Source of the DNA: Chthoniobacterales bacterium
GTDB lineage: Bacteria > Verrucomicrobiota > Verrucomicrobiia > Chthoniobacterales > UBA10450
DNA: 64,000 nucleotides
Assembly: GCA_035630155.1 (NCBI GenBank)
Contig: DASQLH010000344.1
Span: 2,880 to 66,879, forward strand
Reading direction: 5' to 3'
Shown here: positions 3,342-24,334 of the stretch, in pieces
How positions within the stretch are numbered: position 1 is the stretch's first letter
Layout: each line of letters begins with the position of its first letter
Notes under the pieces: model-generated
Seen by the model: the letters and a program-made list of their open reading frames with translations, nothing else
What the model was told of the DNA's origin: nothing
Database searches by the model: none
Program-made: the position numbers and the translations under genes

Positions 3342-3911
3342 ATGAATCGAGTTTCCCAATCAGGGAAGGCCGGGCTGCGTTCCGCTGCGTGCGTCACTTT
3401 TTCTGCGTTTGCCCTGCTCCTCGTGGGTGGTTGCGGCGATCGCTCCGAAACAGCCGTCGCGGAGAGCGCGCGCCCGCCGGAAGTGCAATACGGGTCGAAA
3501 ATTACTTTCGGCAAGGGCGGTAATTCCGAGCCGCACAAGAAAAACGGCTGGAGCCCGACGGAAGAAAAATTTACCTGGACTGAAGGCTCCTCGGCGCGGC
3601 TGGAGATTCCTGTCCCTGCCTCAAATGAACCGGTGACCCTGAAAATGAGAATCGCCGCTTTGATCAAGCCCCCGGAATTGCCCTTTCAGCCCGTCGAGGT
3701 GTCCATCAACGATCAGAAAATTGCAGACTGGCAAGTGGCTGAGACTTCGGAATTCGCCGCTCGGGTGCCACCGGAGCTGACGAAGCAGAGTGGCGTTTTG
3801 AAGATCGAAATCAAAACTCCTAAAGCTACGTCACCCAAAACTCTGGGGATAAGCGCCGATCCGCGGGTCCTCGGCGCCTGTGTCCTTGAACTTCAACTCG
3901 CCAAGGAGTGA
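3342..3911 (+). CDS. putative lipoprotein, function unknown
   Basis: Signal peptide with lipobox-like LLVGGC. The mature part carries an NGW..FTWTEG ... ADPRVLG pattern that also appears in the C-terminus of the next gene product. Confidence 0.65.
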   Translation: MNRVSQSGKAGLRSAACVTFSAFALLLVGGCGDRSETAVAESARPPEVQYGSKITFGKGGNSEPHKKNGWSPTEEKFTWTEGSSARLEIPVPASNEPVTLKMRIAALIKPPELPFQPVEVSINDQKIADWQVAETSEFAARVPPELTKQSGVLKIEIKTPKATSPKTLGISADPRVLGACVLELQLAKE

Positions 3912-4042: not shown

Positions 4043-5290
4043 ATGAGTGGAACATCTTCCCCCGGCTCCTTCGCCTTGAGCGACTGCCTTACCCCAGCGC
4101 AGCTCGAACAGCTCTACTACAATGTTGTCCTCCAGCACGATTTTTACGGCGATTCCTACGGCGCGGACTGGAATATTGGCCCGTATGACGAAATGGCAGC
4201 TTTGCTGGCTGAAATTTTCGAGCCAAGACAACATGTCGATGTCGGCTGCGGGAAGGGGTTCCTGGTCTTGGCGATGCGCCGGCGAGGCATCGACTCGTTT
4301 GGGATTGATTTTAGCCCCGCACTGATTAAACAGGCGCCACAAGAGGCGCAGCCTTTCCTCAAGGTGGCGACCGCGGAAAATTGGATTAACAGCGGCACCG
4401 TCACGGACGCTGATCTCATCACCTACATGGAGGTGTTTGAGCATCTCCCGGTGAATGTCTGCGCATCAGTCCTTCAGACCCTGCGAGACAATTTTCATGG
4501 GCGGCTCCTGATTACGACACCCTCCTATGGCGTAGACGACCGCTGGCACCTGGGAATTGTGACCAATGACGACGTCCCAACCTGGCGGGAAGACATGGCG
4601 AGAAATGTTCCGTTCCGTCAAATCGTCCTCCAGGATGGTTTGCCGCATCATGGGCATATTACCCTCTGTTCCTACCGGTGGTGGACAGAATTCTTCCTGC
4701 TGAACGGCTGGGTTCGTTCCCTCGACCTCGAATCGAAAGCCTCAAGGGAGTTCGGGGCGACACTGAGGAAATACCACTGGAACCCTTACATCCTGGAACG
4801 TTTGCTTCCCGATATTTTTGAAATCGACATTGCCACTTCCAACCAGCTTGGAAATGGATGGCATGACGCGGAAAGAGCGGGTCATCACGACAAAGGCCGC
4901 TGGACCAATGGCCGGGCGGAAATCTACGTCGATTCCACCAAGGAAAAATTGGTCGCGGTGGAGATCGTATTCACAGCCCCAAGCGTGAACGTGGTGAAGG
5001 ACTACACCTTATCGATTGTCGTTGAGCAGCAAGTCAAAAAGAAAGATTACGAGCTCTCCTGGGAGCCGATCTACTCGAGCTTGCCCGTAAGCGTTCCCTC
5101 TCGGGAGACATTGCAGACCTTGAAGATTGCGGTTCGTTCGCCGAACGCACAACAGACCCGGCCACGCGGAAGCACTCTCTTCCGGTTGACTATCGTATCG
5201 CTTTCCTTCTCCCCGCGAGATTATGACCTCTCGACGGACGACAGAACTCTTGGCCTATTTATTCACCGGGTCACGATCGAAAGCAGCTAA
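4043..5290 (+). CDS. class I SAM-dependent methyltransferase with a C-terminal domain of unknown function
   Basis: Motif I VDVGCGKGFLVLAM and a later YMEVFEHL. The C-terminal ~140 aa carry NGW..RWTNG ... DDRTLG. Confidence 0.8.
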   Translation: MSGTSSPGSFALSDCLTPAQLEQLYYNVVLQHDFYGDSYGADWNIGPYDEMAALLAEIFEPRQHVDVGCGKGFLVLAMRRRGIDSFGIDFSPALIKQAPQEAQPFLKVATAENWINSGTVTDADLITYMEVFEHLPVNVCASVLQTLRDNFHGRLLITTPSYGVDDRWHLGIVTNDDVPTWREDMARNVPFRQIVLQDGLPHHGHITLCSYRWWTEFFLLNGWVRSLDLESKASREFGATLRKYHWNPYILERLLPDIFEIDIATSNQLGNGWHDAERAGHHDKGRWTNGRAEIYVDSTKEKLVAVEIVFTAPSVNVVKDYTLSIVVEQQVKKKDYELSWEPIYSSLPVSVPSRETLQTLKIAVRSPNAQQTRPRGSTLFRLTIVSLSFSPRDYDLSTDDRTLGLFIHRVTIESS

Positions 5291-6561: not shown

Positions 6562-7680
6562 GTGAATATTCCTTTTCTCGATCTAAAGGCAGCTTACGGC
6601 GAATTACAGGCCGATCTGGACGCGGCTTACCGGCGGGTCATGGAAAGTGGCTGGTTTATTCTCGGGGATGAGGTCGATTCTTTCGAACGGGAGTTTGCGG
6701 CATCCTGTGGGCAAAAGCACTGCATCGGCGTCGCTGACGGCTTAGACGCGCTGGTTCTTATCCTGCGCGGATATGGAATAGGAGAAGGGGATGAAGTCGT
6801 AGTGCCCGCTAACACCTATATCGCCACTTGGCTCGCTGTCTCCCTGGTCGGCGCGACCCCCATTCCGGTTGAGCCGGACCCGGAAACATATAATATCGAC
6901 CCCGGCCGGATCGCCGCCGCCATCACCACGAAAACTCGCGCGCTCCTGCCCGTCCATTTGTATGGTCACCCGGCGGACATGGACCCGATCTGCACCCTCG
7001 GCCGCGAACATGGGTTGAAGGTGATAGAGGACGCTGCCCAGGCCCACGGCGCGACTTACAAAGGAAAACGGGCCGGCAGCCTGGGCGATGCCGCTGCGTT
7101 TAGCTTCTATCCTGGAAAGAATCTCGGCGCTTACGGAGATGGTGGCGCGATCGTCACCGATGATGCGGAGCTGGCGGATCGGCTGCGGGTGCTGCGGAAT
7201 TATGGATCGCGAAAGAAATACTTCAATGAAGTCAAAGGCGTCAACTCGCGGCTTGATTCGTTGCAGGCGGCCTTCCTCCGCGCCAAGCTGCCTTATCTGG
7301 ACAATTGGAACCGCAGGCGGCGAGAGATCGCGCGGCAATACCGGCTAAGTCTCGCCGAAATCCCAGGATTGCGCTTGCCGGAAGTAGCGCCAGGCGCCGA
7401 ACCAGCATGGCACTTGTTCGTTGTTCGTCATTCCGGACGAGACGCTTTGCGGCAGCATTTGACCGAGGCAGGCATCGGCACGCTGATCCACTACCCGATC
7501 CCACCGCACCTTTCCGGGGCTTATGCGGACGCGGGTTATAAGCCCGGGGATTTTCCGGTCACGGAGTCTTTGGCTAATACGGTGCTAAGCCTGCCCATGG
7601 GGCCTCACCTCTCATCACCACAGGCCACGGCCGTCATGGATCGAATGTTAAGCTGGAGCGGGCGCGGATCTCAAGGTTAA
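6562..7680 (+). CDS. DegT/DnrJ/EryC1/StrS-family PLP-dependent sugar aminotransferase
   Basis: GTG start preceded by AAGGG. N-terminus [10 protein letters not shown]..., the family-typical [20 protein letters not shown] (PLP lysine region) and [12 protein letters not shown]. Confidence 0.9.
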
Positions 7681-7685
7681 GGGGC

Positions 7686-9584
7686 ATGGTCACCATCTCG
7701 CCCGGGACCCGACAGGCTTCGCGGCTTCCCGGGAGGTTAAACGAGTGGCTCGATTCCGGGATCGGCCAGCTCTGCCTTCTAACCGTAATCGCCCTGGTCT
7801 ATTTGGTCGCGTATTGGAACTACGATGCTCTGCCCGGCGCAAGCGCTCAATATCCCCTCGGCTGGTGGGGCTGGTGGGATCAAGGGCAATATTGGAAATG
7901 CGCCGCCGGCCTCGCCCACGGAAACCTGACGGCGGAAACCTTTTGGTATCCGATCGGTTATCCCGTTTTGGGGGCTCTGTTCTACTCAATTACGCCGCAG
8001 CATGCGTTCCTGATCCCAGATTTGTTGCTGGCGCTGGGCATTGCGGCGCTGTTCTATCAAATCGCGAGAAGGTTTATCACGGCGCTCGAGACGGTTCTCC
8101 TGATGGCAGTGTTCGTCGTTTGTTATCACGGGCTTCTGGCTGACACGCTGGTCGTTCCCTGGAATACGCTTCCGACACATCTCTTCTCTTATGCGGTTAT
8201 CCTGCTGGTCGGACTCGGGCCGCCCAGAAAACACCTGGTTCTCATTGCCGCCCTTTGCGTCGGACTAATGTATCTCTGTCGTCCTGGAGATGCGTTCTGT
8301 CTTGCTCTGCTCGTCGGGGTTGCAGTATTCCGCCTCCCCTCCTGGCCTGAGCGGTTTTGGGCCGGCTTTGCATCTGTAACCATCGTTGGGGCGTTCGCGG
8401 CGTTTGTGGTGCTTCTAAATAAGTGGGTCTTCGGCCCGGGGTCGACGCCGTACGAAATGGCGGTCGCCAGTAGTGGCTTTGGCGGCTATCCAATCTGGCA
8501 AAAGGCGTTCTGGCTCCTGGTCGATAATCGCCCCGTCTTTAACGAAGCCGGAGCTACTCTCTTTTCCCACTTTCCTTGGCTTCCCCTGACCCTTCCGGGA
8601 ATCGTTTATCTCTTGCGACATAGATTGGCCGACATCATTGGCTGGTTGTTAAGCATCGGCGCCACCTGCGCCATATATTTCGAGTTCAACGATTTCTGGC
8701 CCAGTAATCTGTTTCGTTATCTCCTGATCCACTATTTGGTCTGGACGCTGCCGCTGTTGTTCCTGATCGCCTATCTCGGCCTCCGCGACGTCGCGCGAAG
8801 CCGATTGGTCCAATTGAGTCTTGGTTTAACGGCGATCCTTGTCTTCGCCCTGTGGCTGTTGACGACCCAGTTGAAGGTTACAGGCCAGCAGGCCGGCGCG
8901 GTCCCAGCGATCGGACAAATCCCCGCCAGTCCGGCGGAACCGGTGGACTGGGTTCTTTTTGAGGGGGTGACCAGCGCGCCGAAACTGCAAAGCGGCTCCC
9001 GGTCTTTAAAGCCGAGATTGGATTATGTGGAGCCCGGCCGGCCCAAGGGAGTTTTTCTTTTGCTCGCCAGAAACGCGCGTCAAGCCACGTTGACCTATGA
9101 CGCTTCCGAGGCCGGCGCTTTAGAAAAGGTGCAGTATGGACGCCTGGAATGGCGGTTTGTGTCGATCCGGCGCGCTCTCTCTCCGTTGTTGCAGAAATAT
9201 TCCCCGCGAAACGCACGAGTGGTTTCAGAAGCGAGAGTTCCAGGAGTTGATGTCGCCGGCCCTGCGGGCGTTCCGGACGGCCAGCCGGACCAGGTTATTG
9301 AGCTCGATCTGGCCCCCGCGACTTTGCGGGACATCAAGGTGTGGGACCTCCAAACGGGCGACGGCCGAGCGCATTGGATCAGCAAACCGAACCCTCAGGG
9401 TTGGTGGCTGATCAAGACAGTTCCCGGGGTCACCACATTGCCCAAGAACCGCGCTGGAATAAGACTTTGCTTTCCCGATTTCGGCCAGCTCGATCAGTCC
9501 GACTCGGCGACTCTGCGCGGCCTGGACGAGGAAGGACGCGTCATCCTGGAGTTGAACATCCGGCCGGCGGACACGAACAACTAG
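7686..9584 (+). CDS. polytopic membrane protein, candidate GT-C-type glycosyltransferase, with a conserved C-terminal extracytoplasmic domain (paralogue A)
   Basis: 632 aa with many hydrophobic spans. It aligns by eye over its whole length with the 16180..18123 product (YPLGWWGWWDQGQYWKCAAGL / YPIGWWGWADQGHYLKCAASL). The C-terminal ~110 aa are shared with two other proteins of the cluster. Confidence 0.7.
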   Translation: MVTISPGTRQASRLPGRLNEWLDSGIGQLCLLTVIALVYLVAYWNYDALPGASAQYPLGWWGWWDQGQYWKCAAGLAHGNLTAETFWYPIGYPVLGALFYSITPQHAFLIPDLLLALGIAALFYQIARRFITALETVLLMAVFVVCYHGLLADTLVVPWNTLPTHLFSYAVILLVGLGPPRKHLVLIAALCVGLMYLCRPGDAFCLALLVGVAVFRLPSWPERFWAGFASVTIVGAFAAFVVLLNKWVFGPGSTPYEMAVASSGFGGYPIWQKAFWLLVDNRPVFNEAGATLFSHFPWLPLTLPGIVYLLRHRLADIIGWLLSIGATCAIYFEFNDFWPSNLFRYLLIHYLVWTLPLLFLIAYLGLRDVARSRLVQLSLGLTAILVFALWLLTTQLKVTGQQAGAVPAIGQIPASPAEPVDWVLFEGVTSAPKLQSGSRSLKPRLDYVEPGRPKGVFLLLARNARQATLTYDASEAGALEKVQYGRLEWRFVSIRRALSPLLQKYSPRNARVVSEARVPGVDVAGPAGVPDGQPDQVIELDLAPATLRDIKVWDLQTGDGRAHWISKPNPQGWWLIKTVPGVTTLPKNRAGIRLCFPDFGQLDQSDSATLRGLDEEGRVILELNIRPADTNN

Positions 9585-9586
9585 CT

Positions 9587-10381
9587 TCAGGGCGCGGGCC
9601 GGGGATTGGCTCGCTCCTCCAATTGCACTTTGTAATCCCCGCGACTGAGATGTTTCTCAAGCCAGATATATAGACAAATAAAGAGATAGCGGCTTCCCAT
9701 CTCCTTGATCTTGAGTTTAGGGCTGCCTGTCCGCCGGTTGCGCCAGGTAATCGGGACGCTTTTCCAACTATAGCCGCGGACGATGGCTTTGAGCGGCAGC
9801 TCGACGGTCAGGTTAAAATGCGGCGCGATCAGAGGACGGCATCCGTCTATCGTTGCCTTACGATAAGCCTTAAAGGCATTAGTGATGTCATTGTGTTTCA
9901 CTCGAAAGAGAACCTGAAGAAACTTGTTCGCCATCCGATTTAGGAAAAGCTTGAGCCGCGGATAATCGACTACCCCGCCTCCCCGCATGAAACGGCTGCC
10001 GAAGACGCAGTCGTATCCTTCGTTCAGAAGCTTCCAGTAAACGACGACGTCACGCACATCATCGGATTCGTCCGCCATCATAATGACCACGGCGTCTCCT
10101 TTGGCGTGGTTCAAGCCGTAAATGATCGCGCGTCCGAACCCGTGGGGGCCGGGATTTTGAACAGGCTCCAAAGGTGAGATCCGCTGCCGCAAGTCCTCCA
10201 GGATTTTCCAAGTCCCATCCGTGCTGCCGTCATCCACCACGACGATCTCATGCGGAATACTCTGTAAGCGCAGTTCCACGTGAAGATGTTCTACGGTGGA
10301 GGCAATACATCCCTCCTCGTCGCGCGCCGGAAGGACTACCGAGAGCAACTGTAGATCGCTGCTGTTCCGCGGCTCGTTCAT
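9587..10381 (-). CDS. glycosyltransferase family 2, polyprenyl-phosphate sugar synthase type (DPM1/ArnC/GtrB-like)
   Basis: LSVVLPARDEEGCI...VVVDDGSTDGT...MMADESDD, with a C-terminal membrane-associated tail. The ORF track start is 10405. The ATG at 10381 gives a TGATG overlap with the upstream epimerase stop. Confidence 0.85.
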   Translation of the reverse strand: MNEPRNSSDLQLLSVVLPARDEEGCIASTVEHLHVELRLQSIPHEIVVVDDGSTDGTWKILEDLRQRISPLEPVQNPGPHGFGRAIIYGLNHAKGDAVVIMMADESDDVRDVVVYWKLLNEGYDCVFGSRFMRGGGVVDYPRLKLFLNRMANKFLQVLFRVKHNDITNAFKAYRKATIDGCRPLIAPHFNLTVELPLKAIVRGYSWKSVPITWRNRRTGSPKLKIKEMGSRYLFICLYIWLEKHLSRGDYKVQLEERANPRPAP

Positions 10382-11448
10382 CACGCGCCTGAAATCTCCA
10401 GCCATCTGGGATGGGCTTTGGCATGATTTGCGATCTCATCCAGAATCGAGTGGAGCGATGTGTCCGGTTTCCAATTCCAGTGCGTCGCCGCGAGGCTCGA
10501 ATCCATTACCAGCCACGGAACGTCAAACGCGCGGGGTTGCGGATTGACGGCGATCTGCCGGGGGCCGAAACGCTCTTCGCACCACTGGGTAAGCTGCGCG
10601 AGCGACATCGCGCGATCGGCTCCGCCCCCGATATTGATGGTGGCAGGCTGGGAGGTTCGGGCCGTTCGCATTTGCGCGGTGATAAGTGGGACGAGGTCGC
10701 GCGGATGCAGGCCGTCGCGCGTTTGAAAACCGGTTCCGTCGAAACCTATATACGATAACGGCGCACCCGCCAGATAACTGTTAATCCAAAAACTGAATAT
10801 CCCCTGATCGGCTTTTCCAAACTGGCCCGCGCCGGCCAAGACGCCGCAACGGTTAATCCAGACTGGGAAATCGAAGGTCTCGCCATATTCCAGCGCTATC
10901 GTCTCCGAAGCGATTTTCGACGCGCCGTAAAGCGAGACGGGGACCGCGGTGCTGAATTGCTCCGAAATTCCGCGGTTGCTGGCGCCGGCTGGCAGCGTAG
11001 CCCCCGGAGCGAGAACATAAGCGCCATCTTTCGGTTCGACCGGCAAGGAAGCAAGCGCTTTGACTGAGTACACGCGACTCGTGCTGCACAAAATAAATCC
11101 CGCGGCGCGTTCTTTGGCGAACTCCAGCAGATTGATCGTGCCGAACAGATTATGCTCCAGTAACTGCCTGCTGCTCGATTTGCCATCGGTCCCCGCAAGC
11201 ACACTCGGATTTGCCGCGGCATCAATGACCCAATCAGCGGTCGGTAAGGCTGCCAGGTCCGCCGGATTGCGCATGTCCGCGTAGAAAACTGAGACACCGC
11301 GGCGCTGCAGCGGCTCGCGATTCAAATAACTACCGGGCCGGATGAAATTATCGAAGCCGGTGATCTGCAGGGTGGGATCGTCGTCGAGCAACGCATTGAT
11401 AAGCGCGCTACCGACGAACCCGCAGCTCCCGGAGACGATGATTTTCAC
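10381..11448 (-). CDS. NAD-dependent epimerase/dehydratase family (extended SDR)
   Basis: MKIIVSGSCGFVGSALINALL Rossmann motif and a YGASK (YxxxK) catalytic motif. Confidence 0.85.
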   Translation of the reverse strand: MKIIVSGSCGFVGSALINALLDDDPTLQITGFDNFIRPGSYLNREPLQRRGVSVFYADMRNPADLAALPTADWVIDAAANPSVLAGTDGKSSSRQLLEHNLFGTINLLEFAKERAAGFILCSTSRVYSVKALASLPVEPKDGAYVLAPGATLPAGASNRGISEQFSTAVPVSLYGASKIASETIALEYGETFDFPVWINRCGVLAGAGQFGKADQGIFSFWINSYLAGAPLSYIGFDGTGFQTRDGLHPRDLVPLITAQMRTARTSQPATINIGGGADRAMSLAQLTQWCEERFGPRQIAVNPQPRAFDVPWLVMDSSLAATHWNWKPDTSLHSILDEIANHAKAHPRWLEISGA

Positions 11449-11588: not shown

Positions 11589-13631
11589 TCAGTTGGCCGC
11601 CGGACCGAACACGATGCGTTCGACGCGAAACGGCGCCTGGTCTTTCGGGCGTGTTAGAAGCAGGCGAGCCAGGCCGCTTCGATTCCAAGACTCACGCGGG
11701 ATGCGAAAGGTAAGCTTGCTCCCGGTGTCCCCCTGAACGCGGGCCAGCTCCAGACGATTTAGGCGAACGCTCAAAGCAGGCGGCTCCAAGGCGGGCGCTG
11801 AATCATCGGATCTAAACCAGATCGAGCATTCGACGTCGTGTGTTGTTTGAACCCGGCGGAATTGCAAAACGCCCAAATCCTCTGTCATTTGGCCGGCCTT
11901 ATCTTCCGCTAGGTCCCAGCCAGCCACGACGTATTGGGCAGCATTGGCTTCAGGACCGGCAAAGCGGACCTCGGCGCCGGCCGGATCCAGCGTCACGCCG
12001 AAAGTGGAAATGAAAGTGCCCTCATTCAACGTGACTCCACTCAGAGAAGGAGCCGGCGTGGTGAACTTCCACACTGCGAGATCGTCCTCGTTGACGGCCT
12101 CGGCAAGCGGACGGGCATGATCCCGTCCGAACATGAAGGCCCATTCCGGTGTGATCGCATAGTTGTAGCCCAGCCGTTCAAGGGCCAATGCTACACCGAC
12201 AGCCTGGGGCCAATCGCCGTGCGGGAAGACGAGAAACTTTGTGCGTGCGCCATCGGCTTGCGTGGCGCTCGCCAGTCCACTCGACAAAGTGGGGGGGTAG
12301 GAAACCGAGGGCATCTCCGCAGCCAAACGCCAGCCTCGCGTGACGGGAACGAACAGGAGTAGGCCAAGAATTCCCAGGCCGATCGATGCTGTCCGGCTTG
12401 CCTTAACTGGAATGGCATCGCACAACACCGCTGCGACTAAAATCAGGAGGATGAAGATAAGACCGAAGTTGAAAAAACCGTTGAAGTTGAACATCGGTCC
12501 GTTTTGCATTACGCCCCAGCAGACAGTTAGTCCCGTGCTCAGGATAAAGTAAATGCCGAGCCAGGCGGCAAATCGATTCCTTCGAAAGGCCCGCCAGCCA
12601 AATCCAAGCAAACCCAGCGCGATCGCAACCCAAGCGGCGACGAAGTGCCATCGGTCCCTGAGAAACCGTAAGCTGCCACCGGTTATTTGGTCGCAAAACG
12701 TCTCAGGGTTCGCCACGTAAGAAAAGAACGTGGCGAGGTAGATCAAGGAAGCCGGCAGTGTTTTACGATCGCCGGAGTGCCCGGAAAAATGCTGCAGAAT
12801 CAGGTTTAGATTGCTTTGCCGGCCTCTTGTCGCGTCGATAACAAGAGGCACCAAGGCGAGAACGACGATCCCCCCGGAAATTAGGATAGGTCGTTTATGA
12901 AGCCTGATAGCCGCTGCGAAAGAACCGTTGGAGCGACGACTTCGCCCGAGGAGCACCGCGATGGCGAGAAGGAAACAAGGGACGACGAAAAGCGGTTGAG
13001 CGACATGACCATGGACCAGGAAGGACCCGGCCACGGTCGCCGCCACCAGGGCTTTTGCATCTCCTGAGGCCAGCGAGGCGCAGGCGATCAGGAAACAGAG
13101 AAAGGGGAACAACAGAACATGCGGGGCCCATATACTGGTAAACACGCTGTCGCGGATAACTGAATTGACCGTCGCAAAGTGAAGCCCGCCAAAAACGAGC
13201 AGCAGTGGAATCAGGAGCGGATGCGAAACTGTTCGACGAACGATACACAAAGCCCAGGCAAAGAATCCGCATTGAACGATTATCCCCGTTAGGATATGTG
13301 CGTTAAAGGGACTAGGCACGAGTCTTGTCAGGTCGTAGAAGAGCCATTCCCCCGCGGCGTAGGCATAAAAAAACGCAGGCCCCGGATGATGAAATCCCCA
13401 GCGCGAGTAGTTGCCGTAAAGCTCGTGAAAGTACTTGGCGTTACGAATCTGGAGCGCATTCGCGGCGTAGTCACCGGGCTCGGCATGTCCTTCAAGAAAG
13501 AAAAACTTGATATGGCAGAGGACAAGAATAGCCACCAACGCCATCCAAAGCGCCCAGCCGGGCACCGTCGAATCACCTGGCTGCTTTATCTCTTTTGCTG
13601 ACGAGCCACTCTGGTTCATAGGTAGAGACAA
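11589..13631 (-). CDS. large polytopic membrane protein with a C-terminal soluble domain, function unknown (glycan-cluster associated)
   Basis: 680 aa with more than 10 hydrophobic spans. N-terminal loop YSRWGFHHPGPAFFYAYAAGEW. The C-terminal ~200 aa are non-hydrophobic. Sits in the same minus-strand operon as a GT, an SDR and a GT2. Confidence 0.6.
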   Translation of the reverse strand: MSLPMNQSGSSAKEIKQPGDSTVPGWALWMALVAILVLCHIKFFFLEGHAEPGDYAANALQIRNAKYFHELYGNYSRWGFHHPGPAFFYAYAAGEWLFYDLTRLVPSPFNAHILTGIIVQCGFFAWALCIVRRTVSHPLLIPLLLVFGGLHFATVNSVIRDSVFTSIWAPHVLLFPFLCFLIACASLASGDAKALVAATVAGSFLVHGHVAQPLFVVPCFLLAIAVLLGRSRRSNGSFAAAIRLHKRPILISGGIVVLALVPLVIDATRGRQSNLNLILQHFSGHSGDRKTLPASLIYLATFFSYVANPETFCDQITGGSLRFLRDRWHFVAAWVAIALGLLGFGWRAFRRNRFAAWLGIYFILSTGLTVCWGVMQNGPMFNFNGFFNFGLIFILLILVAAVLCDAIPVKASRTASIGLGILGLLLFVPVTRGWRLAAEMPSVSYPPTLSSGLASATQADGARTKFLVFPHGDWPQAVGVALALERLGYNYAITPEWAFMFGRDHARPLAEAVNEDDLAVWKFTTPAPSLSGVTLNEGTFISTFGVTLDPAGAEVRFAGPEANAAQYVVAGWDLAEDKAGQMTEDLGVLQFRRVQTTHDVECSIWFRSDDSAPALEPPALSVRLNRLELARVQGDTGSKLTFRIPRESWNRSGLARLLLTRPKDQAPFRVERIVFGPAAN

Positions 13632-16179: not shown

Positions 16180-18123
16180 ATGTTTTCGAAACTAGAGAAT
16201 GCTGATTCAACGAGACTAGCGCACTTGTCGCATCTCGCCAATCGGTGGCTGGAGTCTTGGGTGGGGCGGCTTTGCCTCCTTGGTGCCGTGGCCCTACTCT
16301 ACCTTTGCGCGTACCAGCAGTGTGGCTACCGTCCAGGCGCTTATTATCCGATCGGATGGTGGGGTTGGGCGGACCAGGGCCATTATTTGAAATGCGCTGC
16401 TAGCCTGGCTCAGGGGAGTCTTACGCCCGATTCTTATGTCTACGCTTTCGGGTACCCGGCTTTGGGCGCCTTGTTTTATAACTGGATGCCAAACCACGCG
16501 TTCCTGATTCCGAACCTGATCCTGGTCGTGGGTATTGCCGCTCTATTCTTTGAAATTGCCAGGCGGCTAATCACGCCTTTCGAGACGGTGTTATTAATGG
16601 CCGCATTCACCTTTTTTTATAGCGGTTTATTATCCGATATGCTGGTAGTGCCATGGAATACTATTCCGACCCACTTTCTGGCTTACGCGATGATCCTTTT
16701 GGTTGCCTTGGAACCGGTAACGAGAAAACGGCTGCTTCTCTCAGCTTTATGTGTTGGCCTTCTCTATTTGTGTCGTCAAGCAGACGCCTTTTGCATGGGG
16801 CTTTTGATTGGAATCGGTCTCTTACGCCTTCCCTCGTGGTCCGACAGAATTCGAACGGGTCTTTATTGTCTGGCCATCGTCTGTTTTTTTTGGGGATTTG
16901 TTTTGCTGGTTAATCAGGTGGTATTCGCTTCCTGGACTACGCGTTATGAGAAAATCGTTAATGGCATGGGGTTTGGGGGTTACCCAGTTTTGCGGAAGTG
17001 GTTCTGGTTTATTGTCGATAGTAGCGCAGTTTTCAACGAGCCCGGATCGACGCTGTCCTCGCGTTTCCCATGGTTTCCAGTTTTTCACGAACCCGGCACA
17101 GCGCTGTTCTCGCATCTCCCCTGGCTGCCATTGGTTATCCCTGGCGCCGTATGTTTTATACGCCGCCACTCTCTCGGCGCCTTGGGTGTGTTTTTCAGCA
17201 TCGGCGCTACGTACGTGCTTTATTTTCAGTTCAATGATTTCTGGCCTCATAACTTATTTCGCTTCCTCCTCGTTCATTATCTCTTCTGGACTTTTCCGCT
17301 CCTGGCCTTGTTCGCCTATCTAGGGGTCAAGGAGGCGTGGAAATTTGCGGCGGGCCGCTGGAGCTTCGGGATAGCACTAATGCTTAGCCTGGGGCTGTGG
17401 TTATTGACGATACGAGAGGAAGTCGCTGGCAAACTCCCAGGGCCTCCCCCTGCCGTGGGCGAGCTTACCGCTAACATCGCTCAACCGGTGGACTGGATTC
17501 TTTTCCGTGGCCTTGAAACTCCGCCAAAGCTAGCGAACGGGCACCGCGAACTCGTCCCGGTTTCCGATTTCGTCGTGCCGCTTCATTTCGAAGGCGTGTT
17601 AGTTGTTCTTTCAAAAGGGGCAAGAATTGAGTCGGTCAAATTCGACACCACGGGAATGCCGGGCTTAACCGCCATTGAATATGGCCGTTTCATTTGGCGT
17701 TTCCAATCGATCGGAAAGGCTGTTCGGACAGCGATTGATCGCTTTCGCGGAGCGCGCATTGTATCGTTAGTCAAGCTCCCAGAGATTGATGTGGCCGGTC
17801 CCACCGGGGGGCCGGATGGTCAACCGGATGAAGTGATAGAACTCGAGCTTCCAAAATCGACCTTACACAGGGTCACCGTATGGGACTTGGTATCAGACCA
17901 GGGTTCAGCACATTGGATTAGTGCTCCTCAATCACACGGCTGGTGGCCCATCAAAGCGTTGCCCTCCACGCGAACGCTACCGGAAGGGCAAAGCGGCGTT
18001 CGCCTCTGCTTCCCAAATTTTGGTAACCTCCAAGCCGCGCGCTCGGCGCGTCTCCGGGGTCTTGACGACTTTGGTCGAATCCATCTTCAAGTCATAATTC
18101 ACCCAAACAAACCCGTTCCGTAA
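16180..18123 (+). CDS. polytopic membrane protein, candidate GT-C-type glycosyltransferase, with a conserved C-terminal domain (paralogue B)
   Basis: 647 aa, collinear with the 7686..9584 product. Contains an extra 17-aa tandem duplication (FNEPGSTLSSRFPWFPV / FHEPGTALFSHLPWLPL). Carries the same C-terminal domain. Confidence 0.7.
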   Translation: MFSKLENADSTRLAHLSHLANRWLESWVGRLCLLGAVALLYLCAYQQCGYRPGAYYPIGWWGWADQGHYLKCAASLAQGSLTPDSYVYAFGYPALGALFYNWMPNHAFLIPNLILVVGIAALFFEIARRLITPFETVLLMAAFTFFYSGLLSDMLVVPWNTIPTHFLAYAMILLVALEPVTRKRLLLSALCVGLLYLCRQADAFCMGLLIGIGLLRLPSWSDRIRTGLYCLAIVCFFWGFVLLVNQVVFASWTTRYEKIVNGMGFGGYPVLRKWFWFIVDSSAVFNEPGSTLSSRFPWFPVFHEPGTALFSHLPWLPLVIPGAVCFIRRHSLGALGVFFSIGATYVLYFQFNDFWPHNLFRFLLVHYLFWTFPLLALFAYLGVKEAWKFAAGRWSFGIALMLSLGLWLLTIREEVAGKLPGPPPAVGELTANIAQPVDWILFRGLETPPKLANGHRELVPVSDFVVPLHFEGVLVVLSKGARIESVKFDTTGMPGLTAIEYGRFIWRFQSIGKAVRTAIDRFRGARIVSLVKLPEIDVAGPTGGPDGQPDEVIELELPKSTLHRVTVWDLVSDQGSAHWISAPQSHGWWPIKALPSTRTLPEGQSGVRLCFPNFGNLQAARSARLRGLDDFGRIHLQVIIHPNKPVP

Positions 18124-18181
18124 GCGATCTTCCTGCGTCACTTGTGCCTGCGACGATCCCAGGACGCACGGGCCGGTTAAC

Positions 18182-20053
18182 TTACAACGGCTCGTCAGCC
18201 CACAGCCGAACAAGCCACGAACCGCACAAGGCGACTCCGACGGCGTCGGCATCCGCCACGCCTGGACGGTCCCGTTCCCAGGAAACACGCAAGGAGAGCG
18301 GGACCTTCCAGGGCTCATTTGGGCGAAGGAGGACGCTGTTTGTTGACTTTTGCTCCCAGTGCTTGCTTCCGTCCGTCACAATAATCGAGTGTTTCGGAAA
18401 GTCCGACTGCGAAGAGGCACGGAGCGTAAGCCGGAGCGGAGCTCGTTGCATAATCGCCCGATCCTCCACCACAACCGCCAAGGAACCAGGGTCTAATCTT
18501 GCTGAATACCTCACTCGACTGGCTCGATGGATTTCAAAGCCGAGCAACAGCAGGAGAACGGCAACCGCCGTAAGAATCCTCGATCGATAAATCGTTGCTG
18601 CTGCCGCCATGGCGACCCAGACAGCACAGGCTCCGGCCGCCTTAAGAAGATAATCAGTATCCCCAAACAGGCCCAACCAAAAGCCGAGGTGAATCCATGG
18701 CACTATTTCGAAGAGACGATCATAGGGGAACGGCCCGCTTCGCGCAGCCAGGTGGAGGCCGGGATCAATTATAAGCATGACCGTATTTGCGAGCGACACC
18801 AGGCCGAGCAGCGCATAAAGGATTGCCTTTCCCAGCGTAAGCATTCGGCCTTGGAAAAAGCCGATCAGGCATATGGCCAAGACCGGGACGCCTATTACCC
18901 AAAAGCGCGCCGGAAATGTCTCCCCGGGGTTCTCACCCACTGTGGTGGTTACCAACGTAACCAAAAATGCAGACGCTGGAACACTCCACTCTCTGCGCTG
19001 CCAAAGCCCCTCAATTAATCCAACGAAGGAAAGAAGAAATATCGGCGCGTACGGCAAGAGACCGAAGTGGGAGTTTAAAAGAGCCGCTATGATCCCTCCC
19101 AAGGAAAATGTAGGCCGGCCGCTCGTCACGGACCCCAGCATGCTTCCATAAATCAGGCAATTGTACAAAATGACCGCTGTCACAGCGGCTAGATAAATGC
19201 CGGTAACTTTAACAACGATAATCCCTGAAGTGCCCGGCTTACGTCGCCATCCTAGTTTCAAAAACAGGTAGAGTGAGACGGCGACCAAGAGTGGAAGAGC
19301 ACGGAGGTGGACGAGAGGGGCCAGGCAGCTGCATATGATGCTTGGGGCGAAATCTCGCAATCTTTCCGTTCCCGTCCCGATCAGATTCCAAAACGCAATG
19401 CAGACGAGGAGAAACAAGATGGCCTCGGGCAAGGCGAGGAAGTAATAAGGGAACATGGGAAAGAAGAGTGCGGCAGGAATAAGACATCCCAGAGCCGAAG
19501 TGATTGGCAGCTTCTGCGCGATGAGCAATTTGGCCAGAAAGCATAATCCAACCAGCCCGGTCATCAGCGAGATAAGGCGGATCTGCGCAAGCGACAGACC
19601 TGTAACGAAAGGTGAAAGAAGCAACGACCATACGATGGAATGGACCGGCTTATCCGGATCTGGCTGGACGTCGTTAAGAGGCTGTGCCGCTAGTTCGAAA
19701 CCGGGCAATCTCTCGTGCCTAAGCTTTTCATAGCCGTCCTCGCTCATGAGGGGCTTGCCTTCAACCTTCAAGGAGAGGGCATAGAGTAAATAACGGGGCT
19801 CGTCACCCGTATATGCCAGTCTTTCGGTGAGACGGGCGGTCAGGCCTAGGATCGGCACTGCCGCAACGACCAGATAAAGTATCCACTTCGGCAGGAGCCT
19901 GGGAAGGTTGAACGGTTGCACGTAAGGGAGTTGAATTCTCGGGCTGACTATTTTGAGATCGATCGAACCTCTTAGCGACGTTTGGAAGCACACACCGGCG
20001 CTGCTCAAGAAGAGGTCATATGGGTCCTCCGGAGAGTAACGGCCGAACGGCAC
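18182..20053 (-). CDS. polytopic membrane protein, GT-C-fold glycosyltransferase candidate (ArnT/PMT-like)
   Basis: 623 aa with many TM spans. The first loop contains TGDEPRYLLYALSL, which resembles the DE.RY motif of ArnT-type GT-C enzymes. Confidence 0.65.
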   Translation of the reverse strand: MPFGRYSPEDPYDLFLSSAGVCFQTSLRGSIDLKIVSPRIQLPYVQPFNLPRLLPKWILYLVVAAVPILGLTARLTERLAYTGDEPRYLLYALSLKVEGKPLMSEDGYEKLRHERLPGFELAAQPLNDVQPDPDKPVHSIVWSLLLSPFVTGLSLAQIRLISLMTGLVGLCFLAKLLIAQKLPITSALGCLIPAALFFPMFPYYFLALPEAILFLLVCIAFWNLIGTGTERLRDFAPSIICSCLAPLVHLRALPLLVAVSLYLFLKLGWRRKPGTSGIIVVKVTGIYLAAVTAVILYNCLIYGSMLGSVTSGRPTFSLGGIIAALLNSHFGLLPYAPIFLLSFVGLIEGLWQRREWSVPASAFLVTLVTTTVGENPGETFPARFWVIGVPVLAICLIGFFQGRMLTLGKAILYALLGLVSLANTVMLIIDPGLHLAARSGPFPYDRLFEIVPWIHLGFWLGLFGDTDYLLKAAGACAVWVAMAAAATIYRSRILTAVAVLLLLLGFEIHRASRVRYSARLDPGSLAVVVEDRAIMQRAPLRLTLRASSQSDFPKHSIIVTDGSKHWEQKSTNSVLLRPNEPWKVPLSLRVSWERDRPGVADADAVGVALCGSWLVRLWADEPL

Positions 20054-20140: not shown

Positions 20141-20848
20141 GTGGCAATGAAGGTTTCTGTCGTAATTCCCTGTTATAACGAGAGCAAGACGATTGAGGAG
20201 ATCGTGCAGGCTGTCCGCTGTTCGGGCATTCCCGATCTCGAGATTGTCGTGGTGGACGATTGCTCCACCGATGGGACGCGAGAACTCCTGGAAACCCGGC
20301 TGCGCGATAAAACCGATGTCATTCTGTATCATTCGGAAAATCAGGGAAAGGGAGCCACGTTGCGCACCGGTTTTGGCGCCGCGACCGGTGATGTCATCAT
20401 CGTTCAGGACGCGGACCTCGAATACGACCCTCAGGAATACCATCTCTTGCTCGACCCGATTGCGGCCGGCAAGGCGGATGTGGTTTACGGTTCTCGTTTC
20501 ATGGGAGGCCGCGCTCATCGCGTCGTTTATTTTTGGCACATGGTCGGCAATCGATTTCTCACGCTCTTGTCGAATATGTTTACAAATTTGAACCTGACGG
20601 ACATGGAGACCTGCTATAAGGCGTTCCGCCGCGAAGCTCTGGCTAACATTGTCATCGAGGAAGATCGCTTCGGTTTTGAGCCGGAGATTACGGCCAAGGT
20701 AGCAAAAAGTGGGTACAGGGTTTTCGAGGTCGGTATCTCATACAATGGCCGAACCTATGAGGAGGGCAAAAAGATAGGATGGCGGGACGGACTTCGGGCC
20801 GTGTATGCGATTGTGAAGTACAACGTTTTCCGACGCAGCCGGCGCTGA
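20141..20848 (+). CDS. glycosyltransferase family 2, polyprenyl-phosphate sugar synthase type
   Basis: MKVSVVIPCYNESKTIEEIV...VVVDDCSTDGT...IVQDADLEYDPQEY. Confidence 0.9.
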   Translation: MAMKVSVVIPCYNESKTIEEIVQAVRCSGIPDLEIVVVDDCSTDGTRELLETRLRDKTDVILYHSENQGKGATLRTGFGAATGDVIIVQDADLEYDPQEYHLLLDPIAAGKADVVYGSRFMGGRAHRVVYFWHMVGNRFLTLLSNMFTNLNLTDMETCYKAFRREALANIVIEEDRFGFEPEITAKVAKSGYRVFEVGISYNGRTYEEGKKIGWRDGLRAVYAIVKYNVFRRSRR

Positions 20849-21369
20849 TGGGATCTCCCGCACCCAGTGCCATGGCCTCAAAGATTTTCGCCCTTAGCGT
20901 CCTCGTGGGGATCATGATGACCACGGCCTGCAAAAAAGCGCCTGAGGTAAAGTCCACCGAAACAAAAGCCGCGGAGCCGGTGGCTGCTGAAATTACTCCG
21001 CCCGGATGGATACGCCCCGAATTGACCTTTCTCCGCAAGCCCGGCATCGATCTGGCCGGGCCCGCCGCCGTGCCTGACGGAGAACCCGACCTGGTCCTGG
21101 AGGTAATTCTTGAGCCGGCGCTTCTCAAGGAAGTCGCAATTTGGGAAGTTCACGGCAATGCAAATCTCGGTTCCTGGACAAGTGCTCCAAACAACCATGG
21201 TTGGTGGTTAATCAAAACGGATCTGGAACCAGAACAAAATCCCAAAGCCAGCCGGTCACGAATTCGGCTGTGCTTCCCCGACAACAACGACCCGCGGTTA
21301 ACCAGGTTGACCGTCAAAGCTTCGCGATCGAACGGCGCCGTCCTGTTCCAGCAAACGGTAAGCAAGTGA
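20848..21369 (+). CDS. putative lipoprotein consisting mainly of the cluster-specific C-terminal domain
   Basis: The ATG at 20848 overlaps the GT2 stop (TGATG); an alternative ATG lies at 20872. Signal/lipobox MASKIFALSVLVGIMMTTAC. The remainder aligns with the C-termini of the 7686 and 16180 products (IDLAGPAAVPDGEPD...WTSAPNNHGWWLIKT...IRLCFPD). Confidence 0.7.
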   Translation: MGSPAPSAMASKIFALSVLVGIMMTTACKKAPEVKSTETKAAEPVAAEITPPGWIRPELTFLRKPGIDLAGPAAVPDGEPDLVLEVILEPALLKEVAIWEVHGNANLGSWTSAPNNHGWWLIKTDLEPEQNPKASRSRIRLCFPDNNDPRLTRLTVKASRSNGAVLFQQTVSK

Positions 21370-21402: not shown

Positions 21403-23256
21403 TTAGCCGCTCTGCAGGCGCAACCGCGGCAGCAGCTCAGCGAGGATTTGGGACACAGATTCCCCGGCCGTTTGCTCGTGCGTTCGCACCGCAATTTCCG
21501 GATCTTCCGGCGGTTCGTAGGGAGCGTCGATGCCGGTGAAACCTTTGAGCTGCCCGGCTCGCGCCTTTTGGTAAAGTCCCTTTGGATCGCGCTGCTCGCA
21601 AACGGCCAAGGGCGCATCGACAAAGATTTCCACGAACTCCGCTCCCGCTTGCAAGGCAATGGCGCGTGCCCGAGTTCGATCGGCGCGATAAGGCGAAATG
21701 AAGGAAGTGATCACCACCGTGCCCGCATCCGCCATGAGCTTCGCTACTTCGCTCACCCGCCGGATGTTCTCGGCGCGGTCCTCAGGCGCGAAGCCCAGAT
21801 TCGAGTTCAAGCCGTGGCGCAAGTTGTCGCCATCGAGCACATAGGTGTGCATCGAGAGACGAAAAAGTTCGTTCTCGAGCGCACGCGCGATGGTGGACTT
21901 ACCAGCGCCGGAAAGTCCCGTTAGCCAGACGACCGCGCCGCGATGCTGATTCCGCAGCGCGCGCCGCTCGGCCGTGATTTCGCTTTCGCTCCAGAAAATG
22001 TTCTCGCTCTTGATCTCTTTCCGGCTGGAATAAACCGCACCGGAGATGATCCCGCCCCCCACGAGCGTGCCCCCATCCGCCAGGACAAAGCGGCCCATGC
22101 TCGGCACGCGATCGTGATTATCGAGAACGAGCGGCGCCCGGGTCTGCAGCGTTATTTCGGCGACTTCGTTGATGCGAAGTTCCGCTCGATCGATCGCAGC
22201 GGAATCGAGCGTTGCCGCGTCGATCACTTTGCCGACGGCCGCCACATGGCATTCGACGTCCTGCGTTACCAGTTTTAACCGATAACGCGCGCCGACGCGC
22301 AGCGGCTCGGGTCCGATCCAAAAAACTTTGGCGTGGACCCGATTCGACTCGATCGGTGCATCATTTTCATGCGAAGCGACATGCCCGCGCTCGATGAAAA
22401 TATGGTCGTGCAGAGTGATGCCGATTGACTCACCGGCTCGCGCGGATTCGGGCGAGGCACCACCCCATCGCTCGATTGTGGCCACCCGCGCCGTCTTGTT
22501 ATGAGGCGAGAAGAGAAGCTGATCGCCAACCCGCAAAGTTCCAGATTCGATCCGGCCGGCAAAGATGCGGCGGTTCTCCATCCGATACACATCCTGGATG
22601 GGAAAACGGAGCGGCTGTTTTTCGGCAGAGGCGGGTGCGGGGAGTTCGTCGATCGCCTGGAGCAAATTGCGTCCCTTGAACCACGCCACGGTCGCACCCC
22701 CCTCGCGCGTGACATTCACGCCCGTGCTCGACGAGATCGGGATGAAAGCGTCGGGTTTCAGTCCCAGCTCATGCAAGAATGCAGAATAGTTTTTCTCGAT
22801 CTCGCGAAATGGCGCTTCCGCATAATTCACCAAATCCATTTTGTTCACGGCTATGATCAGCTGCTGAATCCCGAGCAGACTTAGCAACTGCCCGTGCCGG
22901 CGGCTTTGTTCGCGGACGCCTTCATCGGCGGCGATCACCACCACCGCGGCATCGGCGCTGGCCGCGCCCGTGATCATATTCTTGAGGAATTCCTGGTGGC
23001 CCGGCGCGTCGATGATGACGTAATTGCGGCGCGCGGTGCGAAACTGGATCTGCGTCGTATCGATCGTGATATTTTGCTCCTGCTCCTCGGAAAGCGCATC
23101 GAGCACGAACGCGTATTCGAACGGCCGGCCCTGCGCCTGACTGCTCGCCCGCAGCGCCTCGATCTTCCCCTCGGGAAGCGACCCCGTTTCCTCCAGGATC
23201 CGCCCGATCAAAGTCGATTTGCCGTGATCGACGTGGCCGACGAAAACGAGCTTCAC
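21403..23256 (-). CDS. cysNC: bifunctional sulfate adenylyltransferase subunit 1 / adenylylsulfate kinase
   Basis: N-terminal GTPase [16 protein letters not shown] and DAPGHQEF. C-terminal APS kinase P-loop [14 protein letters not shown]. Confidence 0.93.
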
Positions 23257-24068
23257 ATGAACCCCTTTGCTCGCAGCTTTTGCATCGCATGCGGCTCATA
23301 ATGATCTTGCGCGCGGCCGGCGCGCTCGCTGGATCTTGTTTGCTCGAGTTCGGCAATGATCGCGTCAATTGTCGTCGCGTTGCTTGGAATCGGATGAGTG
23401 ATGGGCATGCAGCCTAACGAGCGGAAGCGCTGGCCGTTTCGCGCAAAATAAAGAGGCGGGATGGGAATATTCTCGCGCTGAAGGTAGCGCCAGATGTCGA
23501 GCTCCGTCCAATCGAGCAGCGGTTGCACGCGCAGGTGTTCGCCCGGCGCGTTCTTCGTGGCGAATTGTCCCCAGAACTGCGGTGGCTGATGTTTGTAGTG
23601 CCACTCGGAATCGGCATCGCGCGGTGAGAAATAACGTTCCTTCGCCCGGGTCGCATCCTCGTCGCGGCGGATGCCGGTAATGAGCGCGTCCCACTTGTGT
23701 TCCGCGATCGCCTGCTTCAACGCGACGGTTTTCAGCTCGTGCGTCACCGTCACCGGATCGTGCGTCTCATAACCGATGCCGCGCGCGCGCGCTTCGGTGT
23801 TCACCTTCACGATCACCGTGATGCCGTATTGCTTGATCGCCCATTCGCGGAATTCGAGCATCTCCGGAAACTCGTAGGTCGTGTCGATATGCAAAAGCGG
23901 ATACGGGACCTTGCCGAAAAACGCTTTGAGCGTAAGCCACAGCAGGACGTTGGAATCTTTGCCCATCGACCAGGGCATCGCCAGGTTGCGAAAAGCGTGG
24001 CTCGCCTCCCGGAGAATGAAAACGCTGTGGTTTTCCAGGGCGTCGAGATGTGTGTGCTCGCCTTTCAT
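23253..24068 (-). CDS. cysD: sulfate adenylyltransferase subunit 2
   Basis: [21 protein letters not shown]...[11 protein letters not shown] (PP-loop), [15 protein letters not shown], and C-terminal SERAGRAQD...[12 protein letters not shown] overlap with cysNC. The longer ORF-track version reads through the tRNA and is rejected. Confidence 0.92.
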
Positions 24069-24079
24069 TGAGCTGAGAG

Positions 24080-24152
24080 AGCCGGCAGACGGATTCGAAC
24101 CGACGACCTGCTGATTACAAATCAGCTGCTCTACCAACTGAGCTATGCCGGC
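24080..24152 (-). tRNA. tRNA-Thr (anticodon UGU)
   Basis: The reverse complement reads GCCGGCATAGCTCAGTTGGTAGAGCAGCTGATTTGTAATCAGCAGGTCGTCGGTTCGAATCCGTCTGCCGGCT. It has a 7-bp acceptor stem, D arm GCTC/GAGC, anticodon stem GCTGA/TCAGC with loop TTTGTAA, and a TTCGAAT T-loop. CCA is not encoded. Confidence 0.9.
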
Positions 24153-24334
24153 GTTTGCGAGGGACGTTCCCGCGTTCTCTCTGGCGAGGCAAGTCGAATC
24201 CGCCACTGCGCGCAACGCCCGCGCTGTCTTTAATTGGAGTTGCCTCCGGTGTGCCCGGGTGACACACTGGATCCCAATCCCCCTCTCCCCTGCGGCATCC
24301 GCCAAAATTCGAAAGGGGGTCCAATTCGACCTCT

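Follow-up and report, generated by a model that had tools for sequence, protein, structure and literature searches.

A new family of predicted immunoglobulin-like domains on GT-C-like membrane proteins and a free lipoprotein in a glycan gene cluster of Verrucomicrobiota

The stretch of DNA considered in this study, which I will call the window, comprises 64,000 nucleotides from the genome of a soil Chthoniobacterales bacterium of the phylum Verrucomicrobiota (assembly GCA_035630155.1, contig DASQLH010000344.1, positions 2,880 to 66,879 of the forward strand). It holds a cluster of glycan genes in which three open reading frames (ORFs), all on the plus strand and all present as described in an original prediction made from the sequence alone, encode proteins that share a domain of about 113 residues, referred to here as domain X. 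P0001 (7686..9584; 632 amino acids) and its paralogue P0002 (16180..18123; 647 amino acids) are polytopic membrane proteins that resemble glycosyltransferases (GTs) of the GT-C type, and P0003 (20848..21369; 173 amino acids) is a lipoprotein. Domain X makes up the C-terminal, predicted immunoglobulin-like (Ig-like) domain of P0001 (residues 515-628, 9228..9569) and of P0002 (residues 530-643, 17767..18108), and it accounts for the entire folded part of P0003 (residues 61-173, 21028..21366). These limits were set by a hidden Markov model (HMM) of 114 positions, built on 24 diverse copies of the domain (alignment A3), and they differ by only a few codons from those that had been drawn by eye (9246-9581, 17786-18120 and 21046-21366).

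Domain X is real, and the similarity among its copies is far beyond chance. P0003 matches the C-terminus of P0001 by BLASTP with an E-value of 1e-25 (51% identity over 83 amino acids) and that of P0002 with an E-value of 2e-20 (39% identity over 87 amino acids), while the HMM recognizes the domain in P0001, P0002 and P0003 with E-values of 3e-46 (envelope), 1.7e-42 and 7e-41, respectively. Values in the range of 1e-20 to 1e-46 rule out a chance resemblance, and the three-way similarity that had been judged convincing by eye is statistically significant. The motif proposed at that time is recovered in alignments of domain-X copies, where the invariant or nearly invariant elements are D-x2-GP-x3-PDG-x2-D, two separate tryptophans, N-x2-GWW-x-I, (I)RLCFPD and a late glycine. 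The signature thus has three aspartates within one loop and four tryptophans, as well as asparagine, arginine and cysteine, and by the evidence of the alignments it exceeds what a pattern confined to the core would contain.

Two parts of the original prediction need amendment. Three proteins of the window do share the domain, but they are not the only ones in the genome: a search of the whole genome brought to light a fourth copy, which lies beyond the window at the end of P0063 on contig C96. The shared region is indeed C-terminal, but the periplasmic part of P0001 and P0002 consists of two beta domains, and only the second of these is shared.

The prediction could assign the region to no named domain, and this holds for Pfam-A, NCBIfam and the sequences in PDB. 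P0001, P0002 and P0003 have no match in Pfam-A (2025 copy) or NCBIfam 20.0 at E<=1. When 24 isolated domain-X sequences were compared with Pfam at E<=10, there were three unrelated single matches and nothing consistent, and a profile search of all PDB sequences with domain X gave a best E-value of 0.58.

Predicted structures provide a view of the fold. The AlphaFold2 model of P0001, based on an alignment of 47 sequences, has a mean predicted local distance difference test score (pLDDT) of 89.6 and a predicted TM-score (pTM) of 0.85. A helical membrane domain extends to about residue 391, followed by a first beta domain (beta-1, residues 392-505) and then by domain X (residues 511-628), whose strands span residues 511-625. 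Block means of pLDDT within domain X are mostly 77-89, with 71 over residues 621-630. In the model of P0003 the N-terminus is disordered and the domain is an eight-stranded sandwich with one short helix (block-mean pLDDT 73-95, mostly 78-95). Foldseek, run against PDB with the P0003 model, returned generic Ig/FN3-like sandwiches only (FlaF/FlaG, butyrophilin, CD22, EpoR), with probabilities up to 0.98, E-values of 0.03-0.2 and TM-scores of 0.25-0.39 as calculated over the full 173 amino acids. With the full-length P0001 model, tandem-Ig Fab chains were matched by the periplasmic part. With eight strands in the models, domain X falls within the range of an Ig-like beta-sandwich (seven to nine strands in two sheets over about 100 residues) and belongs with that fold at the superfamily level.

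An origin of domain X by internal duplication of the adjacent beta-1 was considered and rejected, since profile-profile comparison gave a probability of 0.2%, that is, no relation. Given this result, the absence of sequence matches in Pfam, NCBIfam and PDB and the generic nature of the Foldseek matches, domain X represents a new family at the level of sequence, while its predicted fold is the common Ig-like one. Going by strand periodicity, W99, W120, I122, L141 and F143 (P0003 numbering) probably face the core, and W119, R140, C142, N115 and the loop containing D68, D77 and D81 are candidates for an exposed site.

P0001 and P0002 are related over their full lengths (50% identity) and have the same architecture, a membrane domain of what I will call transmembrane (TM) family 1, or TM1, followed by beta-1 and domain X. 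Both lie outside the curated GT-C sequence families, having no match in Pfam or NCBIfam. The original prediction called them putative GT-C enzymes, and a confident model speaks for this assignment. About 11 TM helices are present in it, residues 45-108 form a helical loop, and its best Foldseek matches are STT3, PglB, DPY19 and AglB. The probabilities of these matches are high (0.98-1.0) but the scores are otherwise weak (E-values of 3.6e-3 to 3e-2, TM-scores of 0.22-0.34). Of 47 homologues, at least 90% retain D65, which lies within the sequence WDQ of the first periplasmic loop. Searches retrieved 51 homologues of P0001; P0047 is the sole homologue to match PMT_2, with an E-value of 3e-5 and a score of 24.7 bits that is below the cut-off of 26.1 bits. 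As judged from the model, P0001 and P0002 have the GT-C architecture, in that the number of helices falls within the range of 7-13 and the first loop is structured and carries a conserved acidic residue. The host proteins of domain X may be presumed to catalyze transfer in the manner of GT-C enzymes.

The orientation of P0001 in the membrane may be read from clusters of arginine and lysine at residues 9-17, 128-129, 181-182, 311-313 and 367-373. Set against the model, these charged loops point to 11 TM helices, with an N-terminus on the inner and a C-terminus on the outer side of the membrane, a count in keeping with the export that the lipoprotein copy implies. Domain X would then be extracytoplasmic, on the combined strength of the lipobox of P0003 and the positive-inside rule, and in the model its place is after the last TM helix of a GT-C-like carrier. 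In three metagenomic proteins of 773-778 amino acids (P0018, P0019 and P0021), the GtrA/DPMS TM domain (PF04138) is fused N-terminally to TM1 plus domain X, and this fusion ties the family to the flipping of lipid-linked sugars.

P0002 differs from its surroundings in base composition, with a GC content of 52.9% as compared to 57-60% around it. Relative to P0001 it contains an in-frame tandem duplication of 17 residues (EPGSTLSSRFPWFPVFH / EPGTALFSHLPWLPLVI). The gene is missing from its position between the gene for an 826-residue GT4 and that for P0005 in the close relatives L017 and L098. P0002 looks like a recent insertion, or else it was lost in those relatives.

In the third carrier, P0003, a signal peptide and lipobox lead into a low-complexity linker, about 30 residues long, which is followed by domain X. 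The lipobox (VLVGIMMTTAC) fits a PROSITE-type pattern and includes Cys28, whose codon is at 20929-20931. A lipobox of this type is found in seven of nine proteins, namely P0003 and six of its eight homologues, and one of the misses is a truncated gene call. The claim that the free form of the domain is a lipoprotein is in this way borne out. The possibility that P0003 is a mis-called ORF was rejected on the basis of conserved synteny and of conserved homologues in eight clusters.

Directly upstream of P0003 is a gene for a GT2 of 235 amino acids (20141..20848, plus strand; Pfam Glycos_transf_2, 4e-35). Its best similarities in NCBIfam, all below the cut-offs, are to AglJ, PpgS, ArnC and dolichyl-P-hexose transferase. 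The start codon of P0003 overlaps the stop codon of the GT2 gene as TGATG, and an equal overlap of 1 nt is present in L098, an arrangement that indicates translational coupling of the two genes. That the lipoprotein gene directly follows a GT2 of the polyprenyl-phosphate type, as originally described, is supported both by this overlap and by the resemblance of the GT2 to such synthases.

On the other side of the GT2 and divergent from the GT2-lipoprotein pair lies P0005 (18182..20053, minus strand), a GT-C-like protein of a second membrane family (TM family 2) that has a characteristic TGDEPRY loop, a weak match to LA_3751/LA_3752 of NCBIfam and no domain X. A 148-residue ORF at 18144-18590 was considered as a possible GtrA and set aside, because it overlaps P0005 and has no Pfam match. 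The order seen in the window, with the P0005 orthologue on the minus strand, diverging from a GT2 of about 235 residues that is followed by the lipoprotein, recurs in all five independent contexts (the window, L013, L017, L098 and L099). In the four other loci, identity to the window is 62-84% for the P0005 orthologues and 90-97% for the GT2 orthologues. Only three of the five contexts include a gene resembling P0002. Two of these loci have features of their own. In L017 a GT-C gene of family GT87 (PimE-like, polyprenyl-P-mannose dependent; L017:8638-9918, minus strand) stands between the gene for the GT2, here about 240 residues, and the lipoprotein gene, which hints that the product of this GT2 may be a polyprenyl-phosphate hexose. 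In L013 the lipoprotein homologue, P0007 (L013:10001-10783), has two tandem copies of domain X. In the tree described below each is the nearest relative of the other, which makes their duplication a recent one.

The genome's fourth copy of domain X occupies the C-terminus of P0063, a protein of 714 amino acids encoded on the minus strand (contig C96:15423-17567, equivalent to L008:10423-12567). The membrane part of P0063 is homologous to P0005 (E = 8e-33) and not to P0001, with which it has domain X alone in common (E = 2e-20). Its neighbors are a methyltransferase and a peptidase of the DPP-IV/S9 type, with no GT2 nearby. A word-index search limited to the domain of P0063 returned P0063 itself only.

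Domain X is thus found in three architectures: TM family 1 with beta-1 and domain X, TM family 2 with a beta domain and domain X, and the lipoprotein. It is an optional C-terminal module. About 30 of 47 homologues of P0001 possess it, and about 15, roughly 505 amino acids in length, stop after beta-1. In more distant members of the membrane family, the slot of domain X is filled by Laminin_G_3 (a ConA-like lectin domain), by FG-GAP repeats or by DUF7024. In a maximum-likelihood tree of 55 domain-X copies, those from lipoproteins form one clade with 100/100 support and a long stem, and the copy from P0063 is a long branch within the diversity of the TM1 copies. This topology suggests a single event that released the domain as a lipoprotein and a single event that transferred it to P0063.

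The distribution of the domain is narrow and, as far as sampled, confined to Verrucomicrobiota. It occurs in two of 40 genomes of the genus (four copies in G000 and one in G024), in none of the 24 other genomes of the order and in none of 400 genomes sampled across the phylum, a search in which 11 candidates per genome were scored. The TM1 family itself is more widespread, extending from Verrucomicrobiota to Nitrospirae and many Proteobacteria, but amongst its best 80 named loci domain X was found only in the Verrucomicrobiota bacterium isolate BP_768 and, in a divergent form (E = 1e-15), in a metagenome-assembled genome (MAG) of Opitutaceae. An exhaustive search of representatives yielded 841 at E<=1e-3. 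The profile for that search was 624 positions long and included the membrane domain (three full-length proteins in alignment A5), and most of the matches are to the membrane family; architectures were read from the best 150 of the 841, with domain-only matches ranking lower. A scan of genome contigs with the pattern PDG[QK]PD[EQR]V[IV] (alignment A6) gave no relative, and a metagenome scan with alignment A1 gave three loci, all of the type TM1 plus domain X.

Two further loci, L043 (Fundidesulfovibrio agrisoli SG106) and L044 (bins.47, a MAG labeled Acidobacteriota), were considered as members, since they align in tblastn, and were rejected because they lack the signature. The domain-X HMM missed their C-terminal domains even with its filters off. 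Each of the two loci encodes a homologue of 613 amino acids, and the last 260 residues of these hardly differ, although the loci are labeled as different phyla; the short contig of L044 may have been mis-binned.

The neighboring genes bear on the pathway in which the carriers take part. Directly upstream of P0001 is a sugar aminotransferase of the DegT/ArnB type (6562..7680, plus strand; Pfam, 3.7e-120), and convergent with P0001 is a second GT2, of 272 amino acids (9587..10405, minus strand; Pfam Glycos_transf_2, 1e-23). An epimerase/dehydratase also faces P0001. The adjacency of P0001 and the 272-residue GT2 is kept in L101, as is the order of DegT followed by the gene for TM1 plus domain X. 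DegT is in the same cluster in L013 and L014, but there GT2 and GtrA genes intervene between it and the gene for the membrane protein, with GtrA adjoining the latter. A metagenome contig of 600 kb has the order FdtA, DegT, GT2 (307 aa), GtrA, TM1 plus domain X, GT2 (229 aa), GT4, CysNC and CysD, continuing after further genes to TrxB and MutM, and on its right flank there is synteny with the window. L014, L100 and L102 have no lipoprotein, and in them a GT2 of the same type directly follows the gene for TM1 plus domain X. A GT2 resembling polyprenyl-P-sugar synthases is found beside GT-C-like genes repeatedly (L013, L014, L017 and L098-L102), so the association with GT-C and GT2 neighbors recurs across independent contigs, as would be expected from the original prediction. 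This gene context fits a three-component periplasmic glycosylation system.

The cluster as a whole behaves as a variable glycan island. Directly bordering it in the window are genes for CysNC and CysD, which activate sulfate to 3'-phosphoadenosine-5'-phosphosulfate (21403-24305, minus strand), and these form a conserved right-hand border in the relatives L014, L017 and L098. The Pfam matches of the genes scanned include no sulfotransferase family, though no search was aimed at glycan sulfation. Elsewhere in the cluster, a protein of 189 amino acids (3342-3911, plus strand) weakly resembles the last 130 or so residues of P0004, a GT-C-like protein of 680 amino acids (11589-13631, minus strand; E = 1e-4), and also the C-terminal part of a methyltransferase (4043-5290, plus strand; E = 0.005). 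The 189-residue protein and P0004 may be a second case within the cluster of a module that exists both as a free lipoprotein and as a fusion.

Several known systems invite comparison. The closest is ORF12 of Citrobacter youngae O1, a GT136 member that acts as GT-C enzyme in a three-component system for pentofuranose (Kelly et al. 2024, PMC11127046). ORF12 has 11 TM helices and a C-terminal, Ig-like carbohydrate-binding module (CBM; residues 503-652). The module binds O-polysaccharide that has not been modified, and the over-expressed enzyme does not need it for catalysis (PMC11127046). P0001 is likewise GT-C-like, with about 11 TM helices and, after them, a periplasmic domain that is rich in beta structure and Ig-like, and it appears to belong to a pathway of GT2, flippase and GT-C enzyme. 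In both instances the module is optional, since ORF12 is active without its CBM and many members of the P0001 family lack domain X. The comparison, made with ORF12 as described, also brings out differences. P0001 has two beta domains, of which domain X is the second, and domain X is found, in addition, in free lipoprotein form and attached to a second membrane family. Furthermore, glycan binding by ORF12 has been demonstrated, whereas for domain X it is argued by analogy.

The CBMs of the mycobacterial arabinosyltransferases EmbA/B/C and AftD are also extracytoplasmic beta-sandwiches appended to GT-C enzymes. As cited in PMC11127046, the modules of EmbA/B/C and AftD bind the acceptor polysaccharide and aid efficient elongation, those of EmbC and AftD being named as acceptor-binding CBMs. 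Domain X has no detectable sequence match or specific fold match to them, and phylum, size and domain order differ as well. The account in PMC11127046 mentions no free lipoprotein form of these modules.

Systems of the GtrA/GtrB/GtrC type (similar to ArnC/ArnEF/ArnT) share with the cluster a DegT/ArnB-type aminotransferase, a GT2 polyprenyl-phosphate sugar synthase, a GT-C-like enzyme and, in the relatives, GtrA. They differ from it in that the membrane enzymes of the window rise above no GT-C cut-off in Pfam or NCBIfam and in that GtrA was not found in this genome. Classical GtrC and ArnT are not known to carry domain X. Finally, Big, PKD and FN3-like E-set domains and the archaeal proteins FlaF and FlaG resemble domain X in their overall beta-sandwich fold and are the top Foldseek matches, but they have no sequence signature in common with it and none of those Pfam families was matched.

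Three observations favor a role for domain X in handling the acceptor glycan: it is an optional module, lectin-type domains take the same slot in its absence, and its conserved signature is rich in tryptophan and aspartate. By analogy with ORF12, then, domain X would be a CBM-like accessory module of three-component systems that binds or positions the acceptor glycan, a reading to which I give about an even chance of being correct. In such a system, the cytoplasmic GT2 would load a sugar onto polyprenyl phosphate, the lipid-linked sugar would be flipped across the membrane, and a membrane enzyme of the GT-C fold would pass the sugar on to a periplasmic glycan acceptor. Domain X, on the periplasmic side of the inner membrane, would bind or position that acceptor. 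It would act in cis where it is fused after the last TM helix and the first beta domain, as in P0001, P0002 and P0063, and in trans where the lipid-anchored P0003 serves its neighbor P0005, which has no domain X of its own. The proposal that P0003 supplies P0005 in trans follows the logic of the Rosetta stone: P0063 has the domain fused, and the lipoprotein is always beside orthologues of P0005. P0003 might accordingly be an acceptor-binding subunit anchored by lipid, and P0005, the GT2 of about 235 residues and P0003 together a split version of the fused P0063, but I regard this extension as tentative and rather doubtful. I found no description of a detachable, membrane-tethered CBM partner in the literature consulted on three-component glycosylation systems. 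The original prediction had offered an extracytoplasmic accessory module acting in substrate binding, chain-length control or docking. Substrate binding or docking would fit the evidence presented here, and substrate binding has its precedent in ORF12 (PMC11127046); chain-length control draws no specific support.

A number of results weigh against a role in acceptor binding. The signature is nearly invariant across clusters that have different genes for sugar synthesis, which is unexpected of a domain that reads variable glycans; the near-invariance could come instead from a partner protein that is itself conserved, from a metal site or from a structural role. In the libraries searched, domain X has no sequence similarity to a CBM, a Pfam family or a PDB entry, and its Foldseek matches are non-specific (E>=0.03), with no CBM among the best 50. 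At 91% completeness, this genome has no GtrA-family flippase that scores above the cut-off. The assignment of the carriers to GT-C depends on structural scores that are weak (TM-scores of about 0.3). Finally, a distant P0005-like gene (40% identical) is present in genome G002, where there is no domain X of any kind.

Some of these results are better accommodated by the main rival, in which domain X is a protein-docking Ig domain that assembles GT-C-like enzymes, the lipoprotein and perhaps components of the outer membrane or of export, or else a spacer that keeps the periplasmic part at a fixed distance from the membrane and binds no carbohydrate. A near-invariant signature that persists despite different sugar genes suits a conserved protein partner, the generic Ig-like Foldseek matches include FlaF/FlaG stator proteins and cell-adhesion Ig domains, and there are several copies per cluster (three in the window and three in L013, counting the tandem pair of P0007). 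Pairing of one domain-X carrier with another is evidently not required, however, since many genomes and contigs have a single copy (G024, L014, L100-L102). A docking or spacer role also sits poorly with the lectin-type modules that fill the same slot in family members, with published precedents at this position that are CBMs, and with the conserved acidic loop and several tryptophans, which are more typical of a ligand site. I consider this rival unlikely, though clearly more probable than the two that follow.

One might suppose that domain X is a described family that was overlooked, such as a divergent domain of the Big, PKD or CARDB type or a CBM family, in which case it would not be new. 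Ig-like domains are frequently very divergent, and the comparison with Pfam was made by hmmscan, with HHpred, InterPro, CATH and the CBM families of CAZy outside it. The full proteins nonetheless have no match at E<=1, the 24 domains have nothing consistent at E<=10, the profile search of PDB ended at E = 0.58 and Foldseek gave no match with E<0.03; an overlooked family is therefore quite improbable. Slightly less probable still, to my mind, is a role on the donor side, where domain X would bind the product of the adjacent GT2, a polyprenyl-phosphate-sugar, or a metal ion that this requires, and deliver it to the GT-C active site. This would explain a tight linkage to one type of GT2 (GT2 followed by the lipoprotein in five of five loci, and TM1 plus domain X followed by GT2 in L014, L100 and L102), and the loop D..GP...PDG..D of the invariant motif could bind a cation. 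In known GT-C enzymes, however, the lipid-linked donor is bound within the membrane domain and the first loop on the periplasmic side (PMC11127046), the module of P0001 farthest from the membrane is domain X, beyond beta-1, the domain of P0003 is on a linker of about 30 residues, and the copy on contig C96 has no GT2 nearby.

What is new here is the sequence family, together with its conserved free lipoprotein form, which is an unusual feature; Ig-like periplasmic additions to GT-C enzymes are already known. Annotation is poor for GT-C enzymes that modify surface glycans beyond the cytoplasm, above all among soil Verrucomicrobiota that have not been cultured, and the definition of domain X helps to annotate at least about 60 proteins in three architectures. 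The practical impact is limited by the rarity of the family, which is found in one phylum as far as sampled. Nevertheless, domain X would add a case to an emerging rule, that GT-C enzymes have exchangeable periplasmic recognition modules, and the conserved set of a GT-C-like protein, a GT2 and a lipoprotein is a simple system for asking whether such modules can act in trans.

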